Source: Candidatus Pampinifervens sinense
GTDB lineage: Bacteria > Aquificota > Aquificia > Aquificales > Aquificaceae
Direction: 5' to 3'
DNA length: 64,000 nucleotides
Assembly: GCA_037927135.1 (NCBI GenBank)
Contig: JAXSPP010000001.1
Span: 128,001 to 192,000 of the forward strand
Under the pieces are notes generated by a model that was not told the DNA's origin, searched no databases, and saw only the letters and a program-made list of their open reading frames with translations. Within the stretch, counting starts at the first letter, position 1. Each line of letters opens with the position of its first letter. This document shows, one piece after another, positions 4,052-25,306 of the stretch. A program made the translations under genes and the position numbers.

Positions 4052-4579
4052 ATGGAGAGAAAGGATGTAAGCAATGAGGAAAATCAGTATGTGGTTATAG
4101 GAAAGGTAGTTGATACTTACGGTCTTAAAGGAGATTTAAAGGTAGAGCCCTACCTTAAGCCAAAGCATTGGCAGAAGATAAAAAGGGTATTTTTAAAACA
4201 CAGGCAAAAAGGTTATATAGCTTTTGACCTTGTTATGGTAAAACCCCATGGAACAAGGTACCTGCTTTTACACTTTGAAGGCTATGATAGCTTGAGTCAA
4301 GTGGAAAGGTTTAAAGGAGCGAAGATCTTCTTACCAAGAGATGAGATACCACCAAGGGAAGAGGATGAGTATTATTACTTTGAGCTTGAAGGTCTTGAGG
4401 TGTTCACCGAAAGTGGGAAGTCTATGGGAAAGATCACAGGCATTTTAGAACAGAGACCTTACGATCTTTTAGAGATAGACAACGGAAGGCTTTACATACC
4501 CTTCGTGAAGGCCTTGGTAAAAGAGGTAAAATTAGAAGAGGGAAAGGTGGTGGTTGATGAGAGCCTTTCAGACCTTTAG
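4052..4579 (+). CDS. rimM: 16S rRNA processing protein RimM
   Basis: IGKV...GLKG, EYY..ELEGL and IPFV motifs. Confidence 0.93.
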   Translation: MERKDVSNEENQYVVIGKVVDTYGLKGDLKVEPYLKPKHWQKIKRVFLKHRQKGYIAFDLVMVKPHGTRYLLLHFEGYDSLSQVERFKGAKIFLPRDEIPPREEDEYYYFELEGLEVFTESGKSMGKITGILEQRPYDLLEIDNGRLYIPFVKALVKEVKLEEGKVVVDESLSDL

Positions 4580-7938: not shown

Positions 7939-8003
7939 CCCTTTCACCTCCTGGTGAATTTAAAGATAATTTTATGGGATATTTTGTGAATATTCAATTA
8001 AAG

Positions 8004-8077
8004 CCAGCCCGGCGGGATTCGAACCCGCAACCTTGGGATCCGTAGTCCCACGCTCTATCCAGTTGAGCTACGGGCCG
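8004..8077 (-). tRNA. tRNA-Arg(ACG); CCA not encoded
   Basis: Acceptor CGGCCCG/CGGGCTG, D-arm TAGCTCAACTGGATAGAGC, anticodon arm TGGGA-CTACGGA-TCCCA, T-loop GGTTCGAATCC. Confidence 0.97.
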
Positions 8078-12420: not shown

Positions 12421-13661
12421 AGATATTGGTGCATATCTGCTGCGCGCCTGATGCGGTCTATTTCCTAAAGAGGCTTAGGGAAGACTATCCCAGGGCCCAT
12501 ATAGTGGGCTTTTTCTATGACCCAAACATTCACCCTTATGAGGAGTACAAACTCAGGCTTATAGAGACTCAAAGAATATGCAAAGAGTTAAACATAGAAC
12601 TGCACGAAGGTGAATACGATGTGGAGAACTGGCTTTCTTATGTGAAAGGCTATGAAGATGAGCCAGAAAGGGGCAAAAGGTGTGCCCTTTGCTTTGACTA
12701 TAGGCTTTTGAGGAGCTTGGAATTTGCTAAAGAAATAGGGGCCACCCACCTTACCACCACCCTACTTATGAGCCCAAAGAAGGAGTTTTTGATGCTAAAA
12801 GAGAGCGGAGAAAAGGTGTGCGAAGGCTCGGGCATTGAGTTTCTTGCATTGGATTACAGAAAAGGTGGCGGCACGCAAGAGATGTTTAGCCTTTCCAAAA
12901 AACTGGAACTATACCATCAGGACTACTGTGGCTGTATATACGGACTTTTCAAACAGAAAAAGGAAAAGGCTCAATGGGACCTTTTGACCTTTGGAGGAAG
13001 AAGGCCCGGAAGCAAGGAGGAGATGATATTCATAAAAGAAATAAGGCTCTTTGCGGAAGAGGAGCTTTCTCTTTCATGTAAAGAGTGGGAGTTTGGCTTC
13101 TTAAACTGGAAAGTGGTTATGGGTAAGATAGAGGTACAAGGCCAGACCATTCCATCTTTGGTAAGACCTTTCTCTTCTTCTATTAGAGGCCTCTTGAAGG
13201 CAGACCCTGTGGAAAAGGTAGGGAATGTTATCTACTACAACAAGGGGGGTTTGAGAGTAATCCTAAAAGAAAGGCTGGAAGACGAACCCATAGAAAGGAT
13301 AGATGGCCTTTGCAATCCCACCTTTATTGTTTCCAAAGAGTATGAGGAGATTCTCTTGAAAAACAGAGTCAGTGCCATGTTGCAGACGGAGATAACACCG
13401 GATAAATCCTTGGTGCTTTTGGTAGGAAGCCAAGAGGCGGAGGAAATTTTTAAGGTTCCTGCGGATACTTTGCAGGACGGAAGAGGAATAAGCTTGGAAG
13501 AGGTAAAAGATCTTCTTTTAAGAGATGCAAAGGATATAGCCATAGGCAAAAGGGCCTATCTTTTAGTGGGTGCAAGCAGCCTTGGAGACCCCGGCACAAA
13601 GTTTTTTGAAGAAAGAACGGGAAGAAAGGTTAGCCCTCTTCTTTGTAGTCAAACTCCTTAG
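12417..13661 (+). CDS. queH: Epoxyqueuosine reductase QueH (DUF208) with C-terminal extension
   Basis: HICCAPD, PNIHP..EY, RC..CF and QDYCGC motifs. Confidence 0.88.
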   Translation: MKILVHICCAPDAVYFLKRLREDYPRAHIVGFFYDPNIHPYEEYKLRLIETQRICKELNIELHEGEYDVENWLSYVKGYEDEPERGKRCALCFDYRLLRSLEFAKEIGATHLTTTLLMSPKKEFLMLKESGEKVCEGSGIEFLALDYRKGGGTQEMFSLSKKLELYHQDYCGCIYGLFKQKKEKAQWDLLTFGGRRPGSKEEMIFIKEIRLFAEEELSLSCKEWEFGFLNWKVVMGKIEVQGQTIPSLVRPFSSSIRGLLKADPVEKVGNVIYYNKGGLRVILKERLEDEPIERIDGLCNPTFIVSKEYEEILLKNRVSAMLQTEITPDKSLVLLVGSQEAEEIFKVPADTLQDGRGISLEEVKDLLLRDAKDIAIGKRAYLLVGASSLGDPGTKFFEERTGRKVSPLLCSQTP

Positions 13662-20564: not shown

Positions 20565-20951
20565 TCATACACTCCAATCCGTTGGCACTCTAGACATCAT
20601 ACGTAGGCTTTCTTCAAAGGCAGACATATACTTCATGGCTGTTATCATAGACCCCTTAAACTTTAACCTTTTGGTTAGCATGGCGGCGCGTGGCCCCATT
20701 TCTCCAGTGGCAAGCCTTTTCCAGTTTTCTAGGCTTGCCCAAAGTTCAAAGTCATATTTATGAGAGTTGGCCCTTCCTGCAGACTTGGCTATGCCTTTAT
20801 CCACGATTAGCTCCACCGCATCTTCTTCCCTTCCTTCCACATAGTACTTTATGCTGGCGGAAAAGTCTTTGAGCTCTGATTTCAATTTTTCGTTTTTGTT
20901 CCACTCTTCCGCATAGGCCTTTATCCATTCTTCAGAAAGGAATCTGTACAT
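20565..20951 (-). CDS. SCP2 sterol/lipid-binding domain protein
   Basis: F.SEEW..AY....N and W..L..G......AML..RLKFKG motifs. Confidence 0.85.
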   Translation of the reverse strand: MYRFLSEEWIKAYAEEWNKNEKLKSELKDFSASIKYYVEGREEDAVELIVDKGIAKSAGRANSHKYDFELWASLENWKRLATGEMGPRAAMLTKRLKFKGSMITAMKYMSAFEESLRMMSRVPTDWSV

Positions 20952-20976
20952 GATAAGCCTCCCTATAAAAAGTAAG

Positions 20977-20999
20977 AGGGGAGGCTCAGGACCTCCCCT
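20977..20999 (-). terminator. Intra-operon hairpin/terminator after the DUF2173 genes
   Basis: Minus strand AGGGGAGG-TCCTGAG-CCTCCCCT followed by CTTACTTTTT. Confidence 0.65.
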
Positions 21000-21005
21000 T
21001 TGCCC

Positions 21006-21341
21006 TTACTTCCCAGCCTCCTCCCTCAAAGCCTTAAATATCTCGTTAAAAGACACCTCATCGTTGTTTACAAAAACACCCACATTGCCCACTACACATA
21101 CGGAGTATTTGGGACCAGTAACAGCCCATCCTATGAGGGGTGTCCACTCTTGACCAGAAAAGGCTGTATACCCATCGCATTCCATCCTTGCCATCATGTT
21201 GTTTGCTGCACACATCATGGCAGCCATGGCTGCATGCTCTTCAGAAAGCGGACCTTTGTAAGCTACAAGCTTTCCATCATCGGTAAATTCACCCGCAGCC
21301 CAAACGCCTTTAATTTGCATTAGCCTGTCAAGGTTTGCCAT
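21006..21341 (-). CDS. DUF2173-family protein (paralog 2)
   Basis: L..LM...G..AAGEF..DG.L..Y.G...A.MCAAN...W.P..GWAV pattern; GGAGGTG precedes ATG 21341. Confidence 0.8.
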   Translation of the reverse strand: MANLDRLMQIKGVWAAGEFTDDGKLVAYKGPLSEEHAAMAAMMCAANNMMARMECDGYTAFSGQEWTPLIGWAVTGPKYSVCVVGNVGVFVNNDEVSFNEIFKALREEAGK

Positions 21342-21356
21342 GGTTCTCACCTCCTT

Positions 21357-21698
21357 TTAGATGTATTTGGAAAGGATTTCAAAGGTTTTGTCAAAGTCTG
21401 CCTTATCAAGCTCTACAAAGACTCCTACATTGCCCATTATGCATGCAGCATACTTACCACCGGCTACAGCAAAGCCATACACGGGATAAAAGCCACCCTG
21501 CCCTGTGTAGGCACTCCAACCCTTTGCTTGCATGTTGGCCATAAGCTTATTAGCAGCACACATCAGGGCGGCTATCTCTGCCGCTTTTTCATCAATGTTG
21601 CCATAGTAAGCAAGGAGCCTCCCATCATCGGAAAACTCTCCCGCCGCAATAGCTCCCGGTATAGACATAAGCTCTTTTAGCTTGCTAAGTGTTGCCAT
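21357..21698 (-). CDS. DUF2173-family protein (paralog 1)
   Basis: Clear paralog of the downstream gene (AAGEFSDDG, MCAAN, GNVGVFV); GGAGGTG precedes ATG 21698. Confidence 0.8.
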   Translation of the reverse strand: MATLSKLKELMSIPGAIAAGEFSDDGRLLAYYGNIDEKAAEIAALMCAANKLMANMQAKGWSAYTGQGGFYPVYGFAVAGGKYAACIMGNVGVFVELDKADFDKTFEILSKYI

Positions 21699-21735
21699 GG
21701 TTGCACCTCCTTCAAAGGTTTTCACCCATTTATTT

Positions 21736-21751
21736 TGCAAAGAAGATGCCA
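21736..21751 (-). promoter_or_regulatory. Sigma54 -24/-12 promoter
   Basis: Minus strand TGGCATCTTCTTTGCA = GG-N10-GC, near consensus TGGCAC-N5-TTGCA, 37 nt upstream of the DUF2173 start. Confidence 0.85.
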
Positions 21752-21812
21752 TTTTTACCTTTTTGAAAATGGCTTAAATCAAGGCTTTTAGTAGAGTAGA
21801 GGAAGATAAGAG

Positions 21813-21839
21813 TGTTTCATGTTGCAACAGTGTTGCAAC
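21813..21839. promoter_or_regulatory. Putative upstream activator sequence for a sigma54 bEBP
   Basis: TGTTTCATGTTGCAACAGTGTTGCAAC contains tandem GTTGCAAC palindromes ~60-90 bp upstream of the -24 element. Confidence 0.6.
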
Positions 21840-21887
21840 GCTTTAGGGTCTTGAAAGGCAAGGGAAAAGGAATAAACTTTTATCCTT

Positions 21888-22394
21888 ATGGTAAGGGAAA
21901 TAATAAAGTACCCACATCCCATACTTAAGGCGCCTACGCAAAAAGTGGATGTTATAGATAGGGAAGTAAGGGAGATAATAAGGGATATGTTTGAGACCAT
22001 GTATCATGCTGAAGGGGTGGGACTTGCCGCAAATCAGATAGGCATCAGCCTAAGGATCATGGTAATAGATACTTCCCCTAAGAAGGAAAGTCCACCTTTA
22101 AAGCTTGTCCTTATAAATCCAGAGGTTATAGAGAAGGAGGGAAGCATAAAGTATAAGGAAGGGTGTCTTTCTTTTCCAGGCCTTACGGTAGAGGTAGAAC
22201 GCTACAAAAGTGTAAAGGTTAAAGCTCTTAATGAACATGGGGAGGAGGTGTTTTACCATTTTGAAGGCTTTCCCGCCATAGTTTTCCAGCACGAGATGGA
22301 CCACCTTGAAGGGATCACCTTTATAGATAGGGTAAATGGGTTGAGAAGAAGGCTAGCCCTTGAAAAGTATGCTAAGCTTCAAAGGCAAAGGTGA
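21888..22394 (+). CDS. def: Peptide deformylase
   Basis: GVGLAANQ, EGCLS and QHEMDH motifs. Confidence 0.97.
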   Translation: MVREIIKYPHPILKAPTQKVDVIDREVREIIRDMFETMYHAEGVGLAANQIGISLRIMVIDTSPKKESPPLKLVLINPEVIEKEGSIKYKEGCLSFPGLTVEVERYKSVKVKALNEHGEEVFYHFEGFPAIVFQHEMDHLEGITFIDRVNGLRRRLALEKYAKLQRQR

Positions 22395-22654
22395 AGGTAG
22401 AGCTGGTAAATTTTTACCCTTTTGAGTTCTCTACAAGAAGACCAAGGCTGCTGGCCTATGCGGATGTAAGGCTTGATGGCAAAATACTTATAAGGGGTAT
22501 AAGGCTATATGAAGCCAAAAACGGAGGGCTTTTTATAGTTATGCCTGAGTTTAGCCCAGAGAGTAGAAGGGCTATAGTGGAGATAGAGGATAGGGAGCTT
22601 TTGGAAAAGATAAGGAGGGTGGTGGTGGACCGTTATAAAGAGAGTCTTTCATGA
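22391..22654 (+). CDS. SpoVG-family nucleic-acid-binding protein
   Basis: LAYADV.LD....IRGIRL......GLFIVMP pattern. Confidence 0.75.
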   Translation: MKVELVNFYPFEFSTRRPRLLAYADVRLDGKILIRGIRLYEAKNGGLFIVMPEFSPESRRAIVEIEDRELLEKIRRVVVDRYKESLS

Positions 22655-22857
22655 CTAAGGAGGAAAAGCTTTCAAAAGCTAAAACTCTTCTATTAGAGCA
22701 TATGGATTACATAAAGAAAAACTTTAGTGTTTCAAACGTGGGAGTGGTCATTGTGGATGATGAAATAATCGTGGTAGTGGATGGGAAATTTGATCCTGAG
22801 GGTTTAAAAAGCTTAAAGGCTTATCTTGAAGAAGTTTTGAAGGAAGTAGAGGAATAA
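22651..22857 (+). CDS. Hypothetical protein
   Basis: 68-aa ORF coupled by an ATGA overlap to the spoVG-like gene. Confidence 0.65.
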   Translation: MTKEEKLSKAKTLLLEHMDYIKKNFSVSNVGVVIVDDEIIVVVDGKFDPEGLKSLKAYLEEVLKEVEE

Positions 22858-22914
22858 GAAATCAATCACTCTAACACAAGAGGCTCTAATATGCCCCCAT
22901 CTTTTTATCCATAA

Positions 22915-22942
22915 TGTTAATATAATTGCTATTATATTAACA
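22915..22942. other. dif-like tyrosine recombinase site (11-6-11 perfect inverted repeat)
   Basis: TGTTAATATAA-TTGCTA-TTATATTAACA; the right arm resembles the XerD arm TTATGTTAAAT; lies upstream of a Xer-like gene. Confidence 0.75.
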
Positions 22943-22958
22943 CCTACTTCCCCTATCC

Positions 22959-23007
22959 TTTGACAGTCATTGACACTTAATAGTAGATGATATAAAATAC
23001 TGTCAAA
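22959..23007 (+). promoter_or_regulatory. Sigma70 promoter bracketed by a TTTGACAGT/ACTGTCAAA inverted repeat
   Basis: TTGACA (22970) -17 nt- TAAAAT (22993); IR arms at 22959-22967 and 22999-23007. Confidence 0.7.
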
Positions 23008-23026
23008 AGCTTGAAAGGAGGCTATC

Positions 23027-23659
23027 ATGGAAAGTGGCAAAAATGTTGTCAAAGTGAAGGCATCCGAGTACGCTATGCTAACAGACCTATCTCTAAACAC
23101 GGTTAAGAACCGTATAAGGGCCGGTGTGCTAAAGGGTGGTAAGGAGGAAGACGGTATATGGTATGTTTATCTCACTCAGGAAGAATTGGACCACCTAAGA
23201 AATCTAAAGGAGGCTCAAGAGGAAAAGGATAAAAAGCTACAGTCAAACCTTGAGGGTCTCAAATCTACCTTGGAAGGAAGCCTTATCGCTACCTACATGT
23301 CTGCACTTATGCAAAAGGAACAACAAAAGGAACAGCTCCTGCATGAGCTTTCCAGTCTTTACACTCTGCTTGCTATAAGAGAAAAGGAGATGGAGTTCCT
23401 TGTAAAGGAGTTAGCAAACGTAAAGGAAAAGTGTTTAGAAAAAGAAAGAGAGTGCGAAAAATTAAAAGAAAGCCTTGGTGAAAAAGAAAAGAGGATAAGG
23501 GAGCTTGAAGAAGCCCTAAGGGAAAAGGACTATATACTTAACCAAAAAGAGCTTGAAATTCAAAGGGTTATACTGGATAAGGACAAGGAGCTTTTGAGTA
23601 AAGAGATGGAATTATCAGCTCTTAGGATGGAGTTAGAGAAAAGGAAGAAGAAGGAATAA
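23027..23659 (+). CDS. HTH DNA-binding protein with long C-terminal coiled coil
   Basis: SEYA....LSLNTVKNRIRAG.L...(W)YV MerR/excisionase-like HTH, then ~150 aa of heptad repeats. Confidence 0.8.
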   Translation: MESGKNVVKVKASEYAMLTDLSLNTVKNRIRAGVLKGGKEEDGIWYVYLTQEELDHLRNLKEAQEEKDKKLQSNLEGLKSTLEGSLIATYMSALMQKEQQKEQLLHELSSLYTLLAIREKEMEFLVKELANVKEKCLEKERECEKLKESLGEKEKRIRELEEALREKDYILNQKELEIQRVILDKDKELLSKEMELSALRMELEKRKKKE

Positions 23660-23669
23660 AATTTTAAGT

Positions 23670-24533
23670 ATGGATAGGCTTTTGGACCTGTGGCTTAAAA
23701 GTCTAAGCAGGGCAAAAAGCCAGAGGACCATAATAACTTACAAAACGTGCCTTAGCACCTTTCAAAAGCATTTGGGAGAGGGTAAAAGCCTGCTTGAGGC
23801 GGAACAAGGAGATATATACTCTTACATAGACTCCACAAACCTTTCTGTGTCTTCCATACTTACACATCTATCTGCCATAAAGCACTTTTACAGGTTTGCC
23901 TTTAGAAGGGGTTGGCTTGATAAAGAACGCTATTCGGATATAGAGTCTGTAATAGAGGATATTAGGGATGAGTTTTCTACTTCAAGGCTCCAAAGGAGCC
24001 CAAGGGCGCTTACAAAGGAAGAACTCCAAAGAATATTTCAATCTGTAAAGAACACAAAATACGAACGGGTTTATACACTCTTCCTGTATAGTGGTATTAG
24101 GCTATCCGAGTATGCAAAGCTCAGTAGTGAGTTCTTCCGTAAAGATTCAGAAGGTATATACTGGTTGAGGCTTCCCGCGGAAATCACCAAAAGGAAGAAG
24201 GAAAGGATGGTACCTTTGATTGGCCCCACAAAGGAAGAAAGCTTAGAGATAAGCCAAAAGCTTGACCTTTGGCTTGAAGACTACGAAAAATACATAAAAG
24301 TAAACACAGGGTCCTTACAAGTTTTTACCAACAGGCTATCTCAAAGGCTTGGTATTCCTTTCTCAGTTCATAGCTTCCGGCATACCTACATAACAAACCT
24401 TGTTAATGCTGGCTTTCCTGCGGAGGTGGTAAAGGAGTTCGCCGGCCACTCTAACGTAAAGACCACCATAGACATATACTATAGGTTTAGCCAAGACAGG
24501 GCAAAAAACCTTGTAAAGAGCTTTCTTAGATGA
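23670..24533 (+). CDS. Xer-like tyrosine recombinase
   Basis: SAM-like N-domain (RTI.TY) and intact catalytic R (SGIRLSE), K (TKRKKER), HSFRH, GH and Y. Confidence 0.92.
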   Translation: MDRLLDLWLKSLSRAKSQRTIITYKTCLSTFQKHLGEGKSLLEAEQGDIYSYIDSTNLSVSSILTHLSAIKHFYRFAFRRGWLDKERYSDIESVIEDIRDEFSTSRLQRSPRALTKEELQRIFQSVKNTKYERVYTLFLYSGIRLSEYAKLSSEFFRKDSEGIYWLRLPAEITKRKKERMVPLIGPTKEESLEISQKLDLWLEDYEKYIKVNTGSLQVFTNRLSQRLGIPFSVHSFRHTYITNLVNAGFPAEVVKEFAGHSNVKTTIDIYYRFSQDRAKNLVKSFLR

Positions 24534-25306
24534 AGTTCTTTGTGCTTACCATTTTCCCTCAGGTGATAAATTGTTATGCAGAGTATGGTATAGTAAAGCA
24601 AGCCATAAAAAAAGGATCGCTTGAGCTTTATACCGTAGACATAAGAAGGTATGCCCATAAGGGACAAGTGGACGATACGGCCTACGGTGGTCATCCCGGT
24701 ATGGTCATAAAGCCCGAACCAGTCTTTTTTGCCTATGAGGAACTGGTAAAGCTGCATGGAAGACCACATACCATAATTCCACAGCCATGGGGCAAAAGGA
24801 TAGATCAGATGGATTTAGATAGACTTTCAAAGCTTGAAAGTATAGCCGTAATATGTGGAAGGTATGAAGGTTTGGACGAAAGGATAAGCACTCTTGCCGA
24901 TGAAGAGCTGTCTTTGGGAGACTTTGTTTTGGCAGGGGGAGAGCTTTTTGCCCTTGTACTTTTGGAAGGCATTGCAAGGCTTTTGCCAGGCGTTTTAAGT
25001 GAACCAGAAAGTATAAAAAGAGATTCCTTTAGAAGATGGCTTGGCTCTCCAGTTTATACAAGACCTGCGGACTTTAGAGGAATGAAGGTGCCGGATGTTC
25101 TTCTCTCTGGAAACCACCAGCTTATAAGGCTTTGGGAGCTTTGGCATTCTATAGAGAGGACATTAAGGCTAAGGCCGGACCTTGTGCCAAAAGATCTGAC
25201 AGAGTTAGAAAGCTCCATTCTTACAGCCATAAAGGAGGGCCTTACCTTTGAGGGCTGGCTTGAAAGGGTAGGCTATGAGAAGGCAATAAGGATGCTTAAA
25301 GATTAA
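24530..25306 (+). CDS. trmD: tRNA (guanine-N1)-methyltransferase
   Basis: VDD..YGG.PGM, CGRYEG.DER, SLGDFVL.GGE and YTRP motifs. Confidence 0.97.
   Translation: MKFFVLTIFPQVINCYAEYGIVKQAIKKGSLELYTVDIRRYAHKGQVDDTAYGGHPGMVIKPEPVFFAYEELVKLHGRPHTIIPQPWGKRIDQMDLDRLSKLESIAVICGRYEGLDERISTLADEELSLGDFVLAGGELFALVLLEGIARLLPGVLSEPESIKRDSFRRWLGSPVYTRPADFRGMKVPDVLLSGNHQLIRLWELWHSIERTLRLRPDLVPKDLTELESSILTAIKEGLTFEGWLERVGYEKAIRMLKD

Follow-up and report, generated by a model that had tools for sequence, protein, structure and literature searches.

Is a short, perfectly symmetric palindrome beside a tyrosine recombinase gene in Candidatus Pampinifervens sinense the site at which the Aquificaceae resolve chromosome dimers, and if so, what might control the reaction? 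The palindrome spans 28 bp and lies upstream of two genes, the first encoding a protein with a helix-turn-helix (HTH) head and a long coiled coil, the second a Xer-type tyrosine recombinase. Both lie in a stretch of 64,000 nucleotides, here called the window, that corresponds to C1:128001-192000 of the genome (G000; an assembly of 1.546 Mb in 12 contigs). We propose, with a probability of roughly 60%, that the palindrome is the dif-like core recombination site of the single Xer-type tyrosine recombinase of the Aquificaceae and serves FtsK-independent dimer resolution. An initial annotation of this DNA had suggested a one-recombinase dif system, and the comparative evidence (uniqueness, conservation, and co-occurrence) supports that suggestion well while leaving it unproven; binding, catalysis, and a role of the recombinase in dimer resolution at the site are what we infer from it. 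The elements at the centre of the argument are the following.

22915..22942, no strand assigned: dif-like core site of 28 bp, with two perfectly symmetric 11-bp arms and the 6-bp centre TTGCTA
23670..24533, plus strand: Xer-type tyrosine recombinase of 287 amino acids (aa), with an intact catalytic set and a strong orthologue in 84/90 family genomes
23027..23659, plus strand: winged-helix and long coiled-coil protein of 210 aa (the HTH protein), with the winged helix at residues 7-50 and a second conserved block at 84-121
24530..25306, plus strand: trmD, a housekeeping neighbour given for context only, with a 4-bp overlap with the recombinase end and a confirmed family match

The 28-bp site and the neighbouring recombinase

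The site reads TGTTAATATAA-TTGCTA-TTATATTAACA, with arms that are perfect reverse complements of each other; if the flanking T and A are counted its symmetry becomes 12-4-12, and the centre is asymmetric only at its second and fifth bases. The initial annotation had described a perfect 28-bp 11-6-11 repeat 84 bp upstream of the HTH/coiled-coil gene, and both the layout and the spacing hold, the distance running from the end of the site to the ATG at 23027. Within the window this is the sole place at three mismatches or fewer, and none of 100 dinucleotide shuffles yielded a match (0/100). In the genome as a whole the 28-mer is essentially unique, with one intact copy, one copy truncated by an insertion sequence (IS), and one weak inverted pair. 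Mean pairwise identity across 18 loci of the genus is 92% within the site compared to 33% and 32% in the adjoining 28-bp flanks, and only positions 7, 13, and 16 of the site vary freely. The site equals a 28-mer of Escherichia coli K-12 (NC_000913.3) at 17 of 28 positions, mostly the inner ATAAT/ATTAT and the outer TTAA; dif is unannotated in that record and the 28-mer was found by way of an arm motif. Archaeal dif sites have 14-18 of 28 positions in common with the bacterial consensus, as reported in passages of PMC2958812. Two other ideas about the palindrome were rejected, i.e., that its centre flips between species, given that centre positions 2 and 5 just vary freely, and that it is a transcription terminator, given that it is without a T-run and that its neighbouring genes differ. 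As single-stranded DNA the site has a folding energy of -7.9 kcal/mol.

The recombinase matches Phage_integrase (PF00589, 65 bits) and a SAM-like N domain (PF02899, 46 bits) and carries no arm-binding domain. Residues R144, K174, H234, R237, H260, and Y270 are invariant in 19/19 aligned orthologues, giving the core-binding domain, catalytic domain, and R-K-H-R-H/W-Y set of a tyrosine recombinase of the simple Xer type, and confirming the catalytically intact recombinase overlapping trmD that had been described at the outset. The closest solved relative is 4A8E (E = 2.6e-11), which we take to be Pyrococcus abyssi XerA, followed by IntI4, an entry titled XerA, and E. coli XerD. PF00589 matches only two proteins in this genome, the 287-aa recombinase and a 366-aa integrase, and the former is its only Xer-type enzyme, as the initial annotation had supposed. 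The 366-aa protein (G000:C3:188722-189822, L003 1438-2538, minus strand) lies near a contig end and has weak, sub-threshold matches to arm-binding domains, which are typical of mobile-element integrases; it is probably the integrase of a mobile element. Adjoining it is a 438-aa open reading frame (ORF) that is rtcB-like by a reading of its translation.

We followed the site and the recombinase through a family set of 90 Aquificaceae genomes from 12 genera, placed by the record names of relatives, and a genus set of 25 genomes, i.e., G000 and 24 other species. Kin are not independent, and the family and genus counts describe the data and carry no statistical test. Of the 24 other species of the genus, 22 have the recombinase at 67-78% identity and one more has it at 100%, and the order HTH gene-recombinase-trmD is kept in 22 of 24 loci, the other two being cut by contig ends. 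All 20 genus loci with enough upstream sequence have the site, with zero to four mismatches. A pattern search placed it in 21 of the 25 genomes and at one place only in 18 of these 21, matching the single intact copy in G000, i.e., one copy per chromosome. In three of the four genomes without it, the contig breaks off at the HTH gene or before it (L011, L012, L016), and the fourth is G017. The gene content left of the site differs among species of the genus; in the window, def, a spoVG-like gene, and a 68-aa ORF lie upstream.

Across the family, a strong recombinase orthologue occurs in 84 of 90 genomes and 11 of 12 genera, at 41-100% identity overall (at least 46% save in one incomplete genome) and 46-63% in the other genera. 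The site, sought as a pattern with up to two mismatches, occurs in 71 of 90 genomes and likewise in 11 of 12 genera, compared to 1 of 90 genomes for the reversed pattern used as control, and the HTH/coiled-coil gene in 50 of 90 genomes and 8 of 12 genera. Of the 71 site-positive genomes, 70 carry the orthologue and the remaining one is 69% complete, and in five of the six orthologue-negative genomes the site is absent too. It is on this 11-6-11 layout, its conservation, and its co-occurrence with the recombinase that the proposed reading is based. Outside the family, the matches listed have two mismatches without exception and fall in genomes where the control also matches, i.e., at noise level. 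Six loci of distant recombinases in other families were scanned for the site with a position matrix built from 19 genus sites, for which reversed sequence served as control; the best score was at most 1.8 and no comparable palindrome was seen.

FtsK, the terminus, and related Xer systems

Bacteria are regarded as almost universally resolving chromosome dimers at dif, under the control of FtsK. A PF01580 search of the 58 family genomes that are at least 90% complete gave no full-length FtsK match in any of them (58/58), and the same search matched 10 of 14 control genomes. The best chromosomal matches score 20-35 bits over positions ~15-80 of 221 (the Walker-A stretch) and fall mostly in ORFs of 615-660 aa, and stronger partial matches of 63 and 42 bits fall in ORFs of 382 and 282 aa on small contigs. 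In G000 the match belongs to a 615-aa ORF combining a PLD nuclease with HerA (DUF87), located just upstream of the window (C1:120711-122558, L035 619-2466, minus strand); this Pfam assignment covers the G000 ORF only, and the ~615-660-aa ORFs elsewhere are known by the same Walker-A match. With no FtsK found, control of recombination would be FtsK-independent, as reported for archaeal XerA: two recombinase monomers would bind the near-identical 11-bp arms, two sites would synapse, and strand exchange across the 6-bp centre would turn a chromosome dimer into monomers.

In our reading, the layout and logic of this arrangement are those of the single-recombinase Xer systems, and archaeal XerA/dif appears closest in logic because FtsK is missing, the arms are symmetric, and the recombinase has the sequence relations described above. 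XerA/dif of Thermococcales and Sulfolobales, as reported in parts of Cortez 2010 (PMC2958812), likewise comprises one recombinase and a 28-bp 11-6-11 site with nearly identical arms, without FtsK; on the side of the Aquificaceae enzyme, the XerA model gives a score on a par with that of the XerD model and the best solved relative is 4A8E. In contrast to the archaeal case, the host is a bacterium, the score of 88 bits falls below the XerA cut-off of 220, and a DNA-binding coiled-coil gene is attached to the site. Furthermore, the Aquificaceae site is often found beside the recombinase gene, whereas dif of Thermococcales lies in the termination region and not beside xerA, according to passages of the same source (PMC2958812). 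The likeness to XerS and XerH drawn in the initial annotation fares less well. XerS/difSL of streptococci and lactococci (PMC1914069) and XerH/difH of epsilon-proteobacteria (PMC5357621) also have a single recombinase with a site near its gene, a proximity raised in part of the latter paper as a possible hallmark of single-recombinase Xer systems. However, excerpts of both papers report FtsK-dependence, and give enzymes of 354-362 aa, compared to 287 aa here, and a difSL of 31 bp, compared to 28 bp; the XerS model, moreover, gives the Aquificaceae recombinase 40.6 bits vs. a cut-off of 267. Given that no full-length FtsK match was found in the Aquificaceae, the analogue is therefore archaeal XerA, not XerS or XerH.

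We found no prior description of an Aquificae dif site, Xer system, or HTH/coiled-coil protein in the full-text literature, a scope that leaves subscription journals mostly outside. Words beginning with "Aquif" are absent from the main texts of Kono 2011 (PMC3025954), Castillo 2017 (PMC5357621), Cortez 2010 (PMC2958812), and Smyshlyaev 2021 (PMC8138268), the supplementary tables of which could list Aquificae genomes. If the proposed reading is true, a whole bacterial family would possess a single XerA-like recombinase acting on a symmetric site with no FtsK found, and would provide a bacterial case of FtsK-independent dimer resolution together with a concrete candidate for an FtsK replacement. 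The site would also offer a fixed cis-acting landmark for Aquificaceae genomes without usable skew, and the proteins are thermostable and suited to biochemistry.

Several observations weigh against a dif-like role. The recombinase falls far below every NCBIfam Xer equivalog cut-off (XerD, 88.8 against 329.6; XerA, 88.4 against 220; XerC, 84.3 against 335; XerS, 40.6 against 267) and is a member of no named equivalog. Fourteen of the 84 recombinase-positive genomes are without the site at up to two mismatches, four of which (G048, G069, G077, and G089) are 98-99% complete and unexplained. G017, which is 99% complete by markers in 70 contigs, lacks any PF00589 match as well as the site and the HTH gene, indicating either that the system is dispensable or that the region was lost from the assembly. 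In eight complete genomes the distance between site and dnaA amounts to 1.6, 11.6, 15, 18, 22, 30, 44, and 45% of the genome. No replichore signal was found in the GC, AT, keto, and purine skews of contigs C1-C3 and the complete genome G090, where skews follow gene strand, nor in 4-8-mer polarity, nor in 5-7-mer polarity after regressing out purine skew (3.05 vs. 2.72 in a bin-permuted control). Two explanations offer themselves, that dnaA is no origin marker in genomes as scrambled as these or that the site has no tie to the terminus, for which there may be no mechanistic need when FtsK is missing. Lastly, positions 22481-24560 of the window are ~100% identical to another genome, G015, vs. 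a background of ~80-85%, as would also be expected of a mobile module, an alternative weighed below.

DNA-binding proteins linked to the site

The 210-aa HTH protein belongs to no family in Pfam or NCBIfam, and its relatives, all of them named hypothetical, come from Aquificaceae only. In an alignment of this family the head (residues 9-47) is highly conserved, block 84-121 is conserved, and the coiled coil is variable. An AlphaFold2 (AF2) model with a mean predicted local distance difference test (pLDDT) score of 89 shows a strand-helix-helix-strand-strand head (7-50) followed by helices at 51-78 and 82-209. Foldseek returned no match to the whole model at E <= 0.001, because the long helix dominates it. 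Local matches (probability 0.94-0.99, E only ~0.1) point to BldC (6AMA), RacA-DNA (5I44; probability 0.94 and E = 0.12 for the head, with no Pfam match), and mycobacteriophage Xis (4J2N), identities taken from the titles of the PDB entries, with MerR-family heads nearby. RacA of Bacillus subtilis has a coiled coil behind a MerR-like head, and the RacA-like architecture proposed by the initial annotation appears to recur in the predicted model as a MerR/RacA/Xis-like head with a long coiled coil, at weak E-values for the fold matches. The small MerR/excisionase-like winged-helix head appears to be shared with RacA, BldC of Streptomyces, and phage Xis, and the coiled coil with RacA; unlike these, the 210-aa protein has no Pfam match, reaches a Foldseek E of only ~0.1, has a likely TGAYA motif, and has no link to sporulation, DivIVA, or development.

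Two further features lie between the site and the first codons of the HTH gene.

22961..23051, plus strand: array of six TGAYA/TRTCA pentamers spanning the promoter, start codon, and first codons of the HTH gene
22970..22998, plus strand: sigma-70-like promoter TTGACA-17-TAAAAT of the HTH gene, with 11/12 consensus positions

From the core site to about the 10th codon, TGAYA/TRTCA pentamers average 6.6 per ~120 bp vs. 0.69 in mononucleotide shuffles, a ~9-fold enrichment across 29 loci (range 3-9), a count that omits L076 and L084, which had been set aside beforehand, and L083, the orientation of which was not assigned. The array begins ~18 bp from the core site and its pentamers overlap the promoter, making it a candidate operator of the HTH protein and a possible accessory sequence of the core site. 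The array covers the protein's own promoter, and we infer that the protein may bind it and autoregulate; such binding seems more certain than any role in recombination, although the protein could possibly also be an architectural or activating accessory factor at the site. A complex prediction for recombinase and HTH protein, both entered as alignments, scored 0.00, evidence neither way.

The site, the HTH gene, and the recombinase gene are not linked to the same degree throughout the family. In every one of the 20 genus loci, the site lies ~85-130 bp upstream of the HTH gene, and 11 of the 13 HTH-bearing loci of other genera show the same spacing (in L076 it is 1.5 kb away on the other side, and L084 ends at the gene). 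The recombinase adjoins the HTH gene in six of these 13 loci and is absent from another six, and in four complete genomes 185-674 kb separate it from the site. The initial annotation had proposed to check for conservation beside this gene pair across the Aquificaceae; the site is indeed conserved, whereas its linkage to the recombinase is not constant. Such geometry favours an alternative in which the palindrome is no recombination substrate and instead binds a protein that controls transcription or organises the chromosome (for instance as a centromere-like or anchoring site for the coiled-coil protein, in the manner of RacA), its recombinase neighbour being incidental, as do the resemblance of the protein head to RacA, BldC, and MerR DNA-binding domains and the fact that the site is not antipodal to dnaA. 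However, the near-single-copy site is kept where the HTH gene was not found (in 16 of 19 genomes of genus g9, 2 of 2 of g18, and 3 of 8 of g8) and is therefore not simply the operator of the HTH protein, for which the TGAYA repeat is the likelier candidate. The site also tracks the presence of the recombinase and has the 11-6-11 layout and inner ATAA/TTAT of Xer sites, and a regulator would be expected to have operators at several promoters instead of a single one in the genome. We consider a role as a mere binding site unlikely.

An unrelated gene of ~100 aa flanks the site in the three loci read of genus g9, and also in G068, G070, or both; it encodes a CopG-type ribbon-helix-helix domain with a short coiled coil and is accompanied by repeats of its own. 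Homology between this ribbon-helix-helix protein and the HTH family was rejected (hhalign probability 1.4%), and the two are analogues. The one g8 locus read (G041) has no DNA-binding gene beside the site, its neighbour being peroxiredoxin-like by a reading of the product. The site is thus the constant element and the recombinase its genomic companion, with a DNA-binding coiled-coil gene of two unrelated kinds usually, not always, attached.

Returning to the site as a dif-like element, we tentatively raise the possibility, short of holding it probable, that control of Xer recombination was handed to these small site-linked proteins (winged-helix in most genera, ribbon-helix-helix in others), which might coat the repeats, pair sister sites, or activate the recombinase. 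Accessory proteins are familiar from the plasmid Xer sites cer, which works with ArgR/PepA, and psi, which works with ArcA/PepA. In addition, a protein of the TLC satellite phage, XafT, is reported to activate Xer catalysis and to assist in forming synaptic complexes (PMC9226527), and a partner protein that binds repeats flanking archaeal dif was raised as an idea in passages of Cortez 2010 (PMC2958812). With cer/psi and XafT, FtsK control is replaced by a small protein or by accessory DNA near the core site, and the repeat array and DNA-binding gene that adjoin the Aquificaceae core might play a comparable part. In contrast, the Aquificaceae site is chromosomal and family-wide, not plasmid- or phage-borne, and the likeness would be one of function. 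The accessory role of the neighbouring protein in recombination, suggested by this analogy, would, if true, give FtsK-like selectivity to resolution and do on the chromosome what XafT or the accessory filter of cer/psi does elsewhere, with a non-homologous pair of DNA-binding coiled-coil genes alternating beside the site.

Horizontal exchange, further site copies, and a candidate invertible promoter

The block shared with G015 (22481-24560, ~2.1 kb) comprises the spoVG-like 3' end, orf68, the site, the HTH gene, and the recombinase; trmD-ribD, the next 1.6 kb (to 26180), are ~95% identical to G015. A similar share is held by public runs, with 0.69 of the sampled words (~2.07 kb of a 3,001-bp query) in X5-X10 and 0.68 (~2.05 kb) in X11-X14. 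In G071, a member of another genus, C6:59577-60690 (L055) holds a site like that of the present genus and an HTH gene (78% identity) beside a broken recombinase, and the genome's own intact recombinase lies 10 kb off; this locus looks like an imported module with a decayed recombinase. Judged from these identities, the module appears to have been exchanged between species by recombination.

Such exchange lends some support to an explanation in which the site, the Xis-like HTH gene, and the recombinase form a domesticated or still mobile integration module, i.e., an att site with a directionality factor and an integrase, and do not serve dimer resolution. The resemblance of the HTH head to phage Xis, the variation between species of one genus in the genes left of the site, and a 4.4-kb contig with identical ends that carries a related 26-mer fit this explanation as well. 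However, in the genomes searched no second site in direct orientation brackets any cargo, the recombinase is without an arm-binding domain, and in 22 of 24 genus loci its translation is coupled to that of trmD. The module occurs in 11 of 12 genera, with recombinase identity dropping with taxonomic distance from 67-78% in the genus to 46-63% in other genera, suggesting mainly vertical descent. The locus is clearly not the strain-specific remnant of an integrated element, though it bears signs of horizontal exchange, and this exchange does not outweigh the family-wide distribution with graded divergence; we regard a mobile module as quite improbable.

The contig just mentioned (G047:C20, L134, 4394 bases) has the same 26-mer, related to the site, near both of its ends (2-27 and 4369-4394), where it adjoins three TGTAATCA repeats and a 727-aa ORF without a Pfam match. 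Given its identical ends the contig is probably circular, and it could be a small plasmid served by the recombinase of its host.

Within G000, the position matrix gave 47 bits to the intact site, 32 to the IS-truncated copy, 22 and 14 to two places on contig C5 (12786 and 13038), and 10.7 and 10.4 to two others, compared to a control maximum of 8.2. Both places on C5 hold full-length but degenerate site copies, inverted relative to each other (G000:C5:12786-12813 and 13038-13065; L086 1786-1813 and 2038-2065) and enclosing 224 bp with a TTGACA-17-TAATAT promoter, the -10 element of which lies inside the repeat. The pair precedes a lipoprotein gene that is variable and has an InlB B-repeat. G015 has a homologous pair (L045 7752-7777 and ~7997-8024). 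From this layout the segment is a candidate invertible (phase-variable) promoter, which we offer as a lead and not as a finding. No flipped form was found in the two assemblies, nor a strand-changing joint in the contigs of four public runs, contigs being prone to lose rare forms; the contigs of runs X1 and X4 span the segment in the reference orientation, and one relative in runs X2/X3 is without L086 1010-2075, i.e., the lipoprotein gene and the segment.

This conserved inverted pair, scoring above the control maximum on either side of a promoter, suggests another function for the enzyme, that of a DNA invertase chiefly concerned with phase variation, for which the palindrome would be a strong binding or titration site. 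The segment nevertheless has equal orientation in both assemblies, and a paired second site was seen only in G015 (by pattern) and G000 (by matrix), the second site of G011 having been outside this check. The main site, in contrast, is conserved family-wide as a near-single copy, which argues against an invertase because inversion needs two sites. We hold this function to be very improbable, and the dif-like reading of the main site remains the preferred one.

The pattern search of G000 found one extra place, C1:79972-79999, 71 kb upstream of the site and with three mismatches in one outer arm. It forms the end of a duplicate of the following segment of the window.

20581..22937, plus strand: copy A of a 2.4-kb segment, with an SCP2-like gene, two roadblock-like genes, def, a spoVG-like gene, and orf68

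Copy A (2.37 kb) is repeated in inverted orientation at G000:C1:79977-82341 with 84.5% identity, with homology extending only partway into the right arm of the site. Directly beyond this second site copy lies an internally deleted copy of an IS (both within C1:79451-79999, outside the window). The second copy of the site is an IS-truncated remnant, neither a chance match nor an intact site, because it ends the 2.37-kb duplicate and abuts the deleted IS. The initial annotation had noted no phage or IS cargo; no copy of this IS occurs in the window, which was not scanned separately for phage genes, whereas 71 kb away an IS remnant does abut the truncated site copy. The IS is ~990 bp long, encodes a 282-aa transposase without a Pfam match, has defined terminal inverted repeats, and is inserted in AT-rich DNA. 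It occupies 19 of the 24 contig ends of G000, including at least one end of every contig, and the assembly is therefore broken into 12 contigs; G015 has at least 24 copies (e.g., L047 320-1305). The inverted duplicate is nearly identical to the single copy of the segment in G015, where the arrangement is undivided, and the window's own copy is only ~80% identical to G015, its last 450 bp excepted. In both the window (20565-21752) and the duplicate (C1 ~80.9-82.3 kb), an SCP2-like gene and two small roadblock/LC7-like genes, named by a reading of their translations, lie upstream of def.

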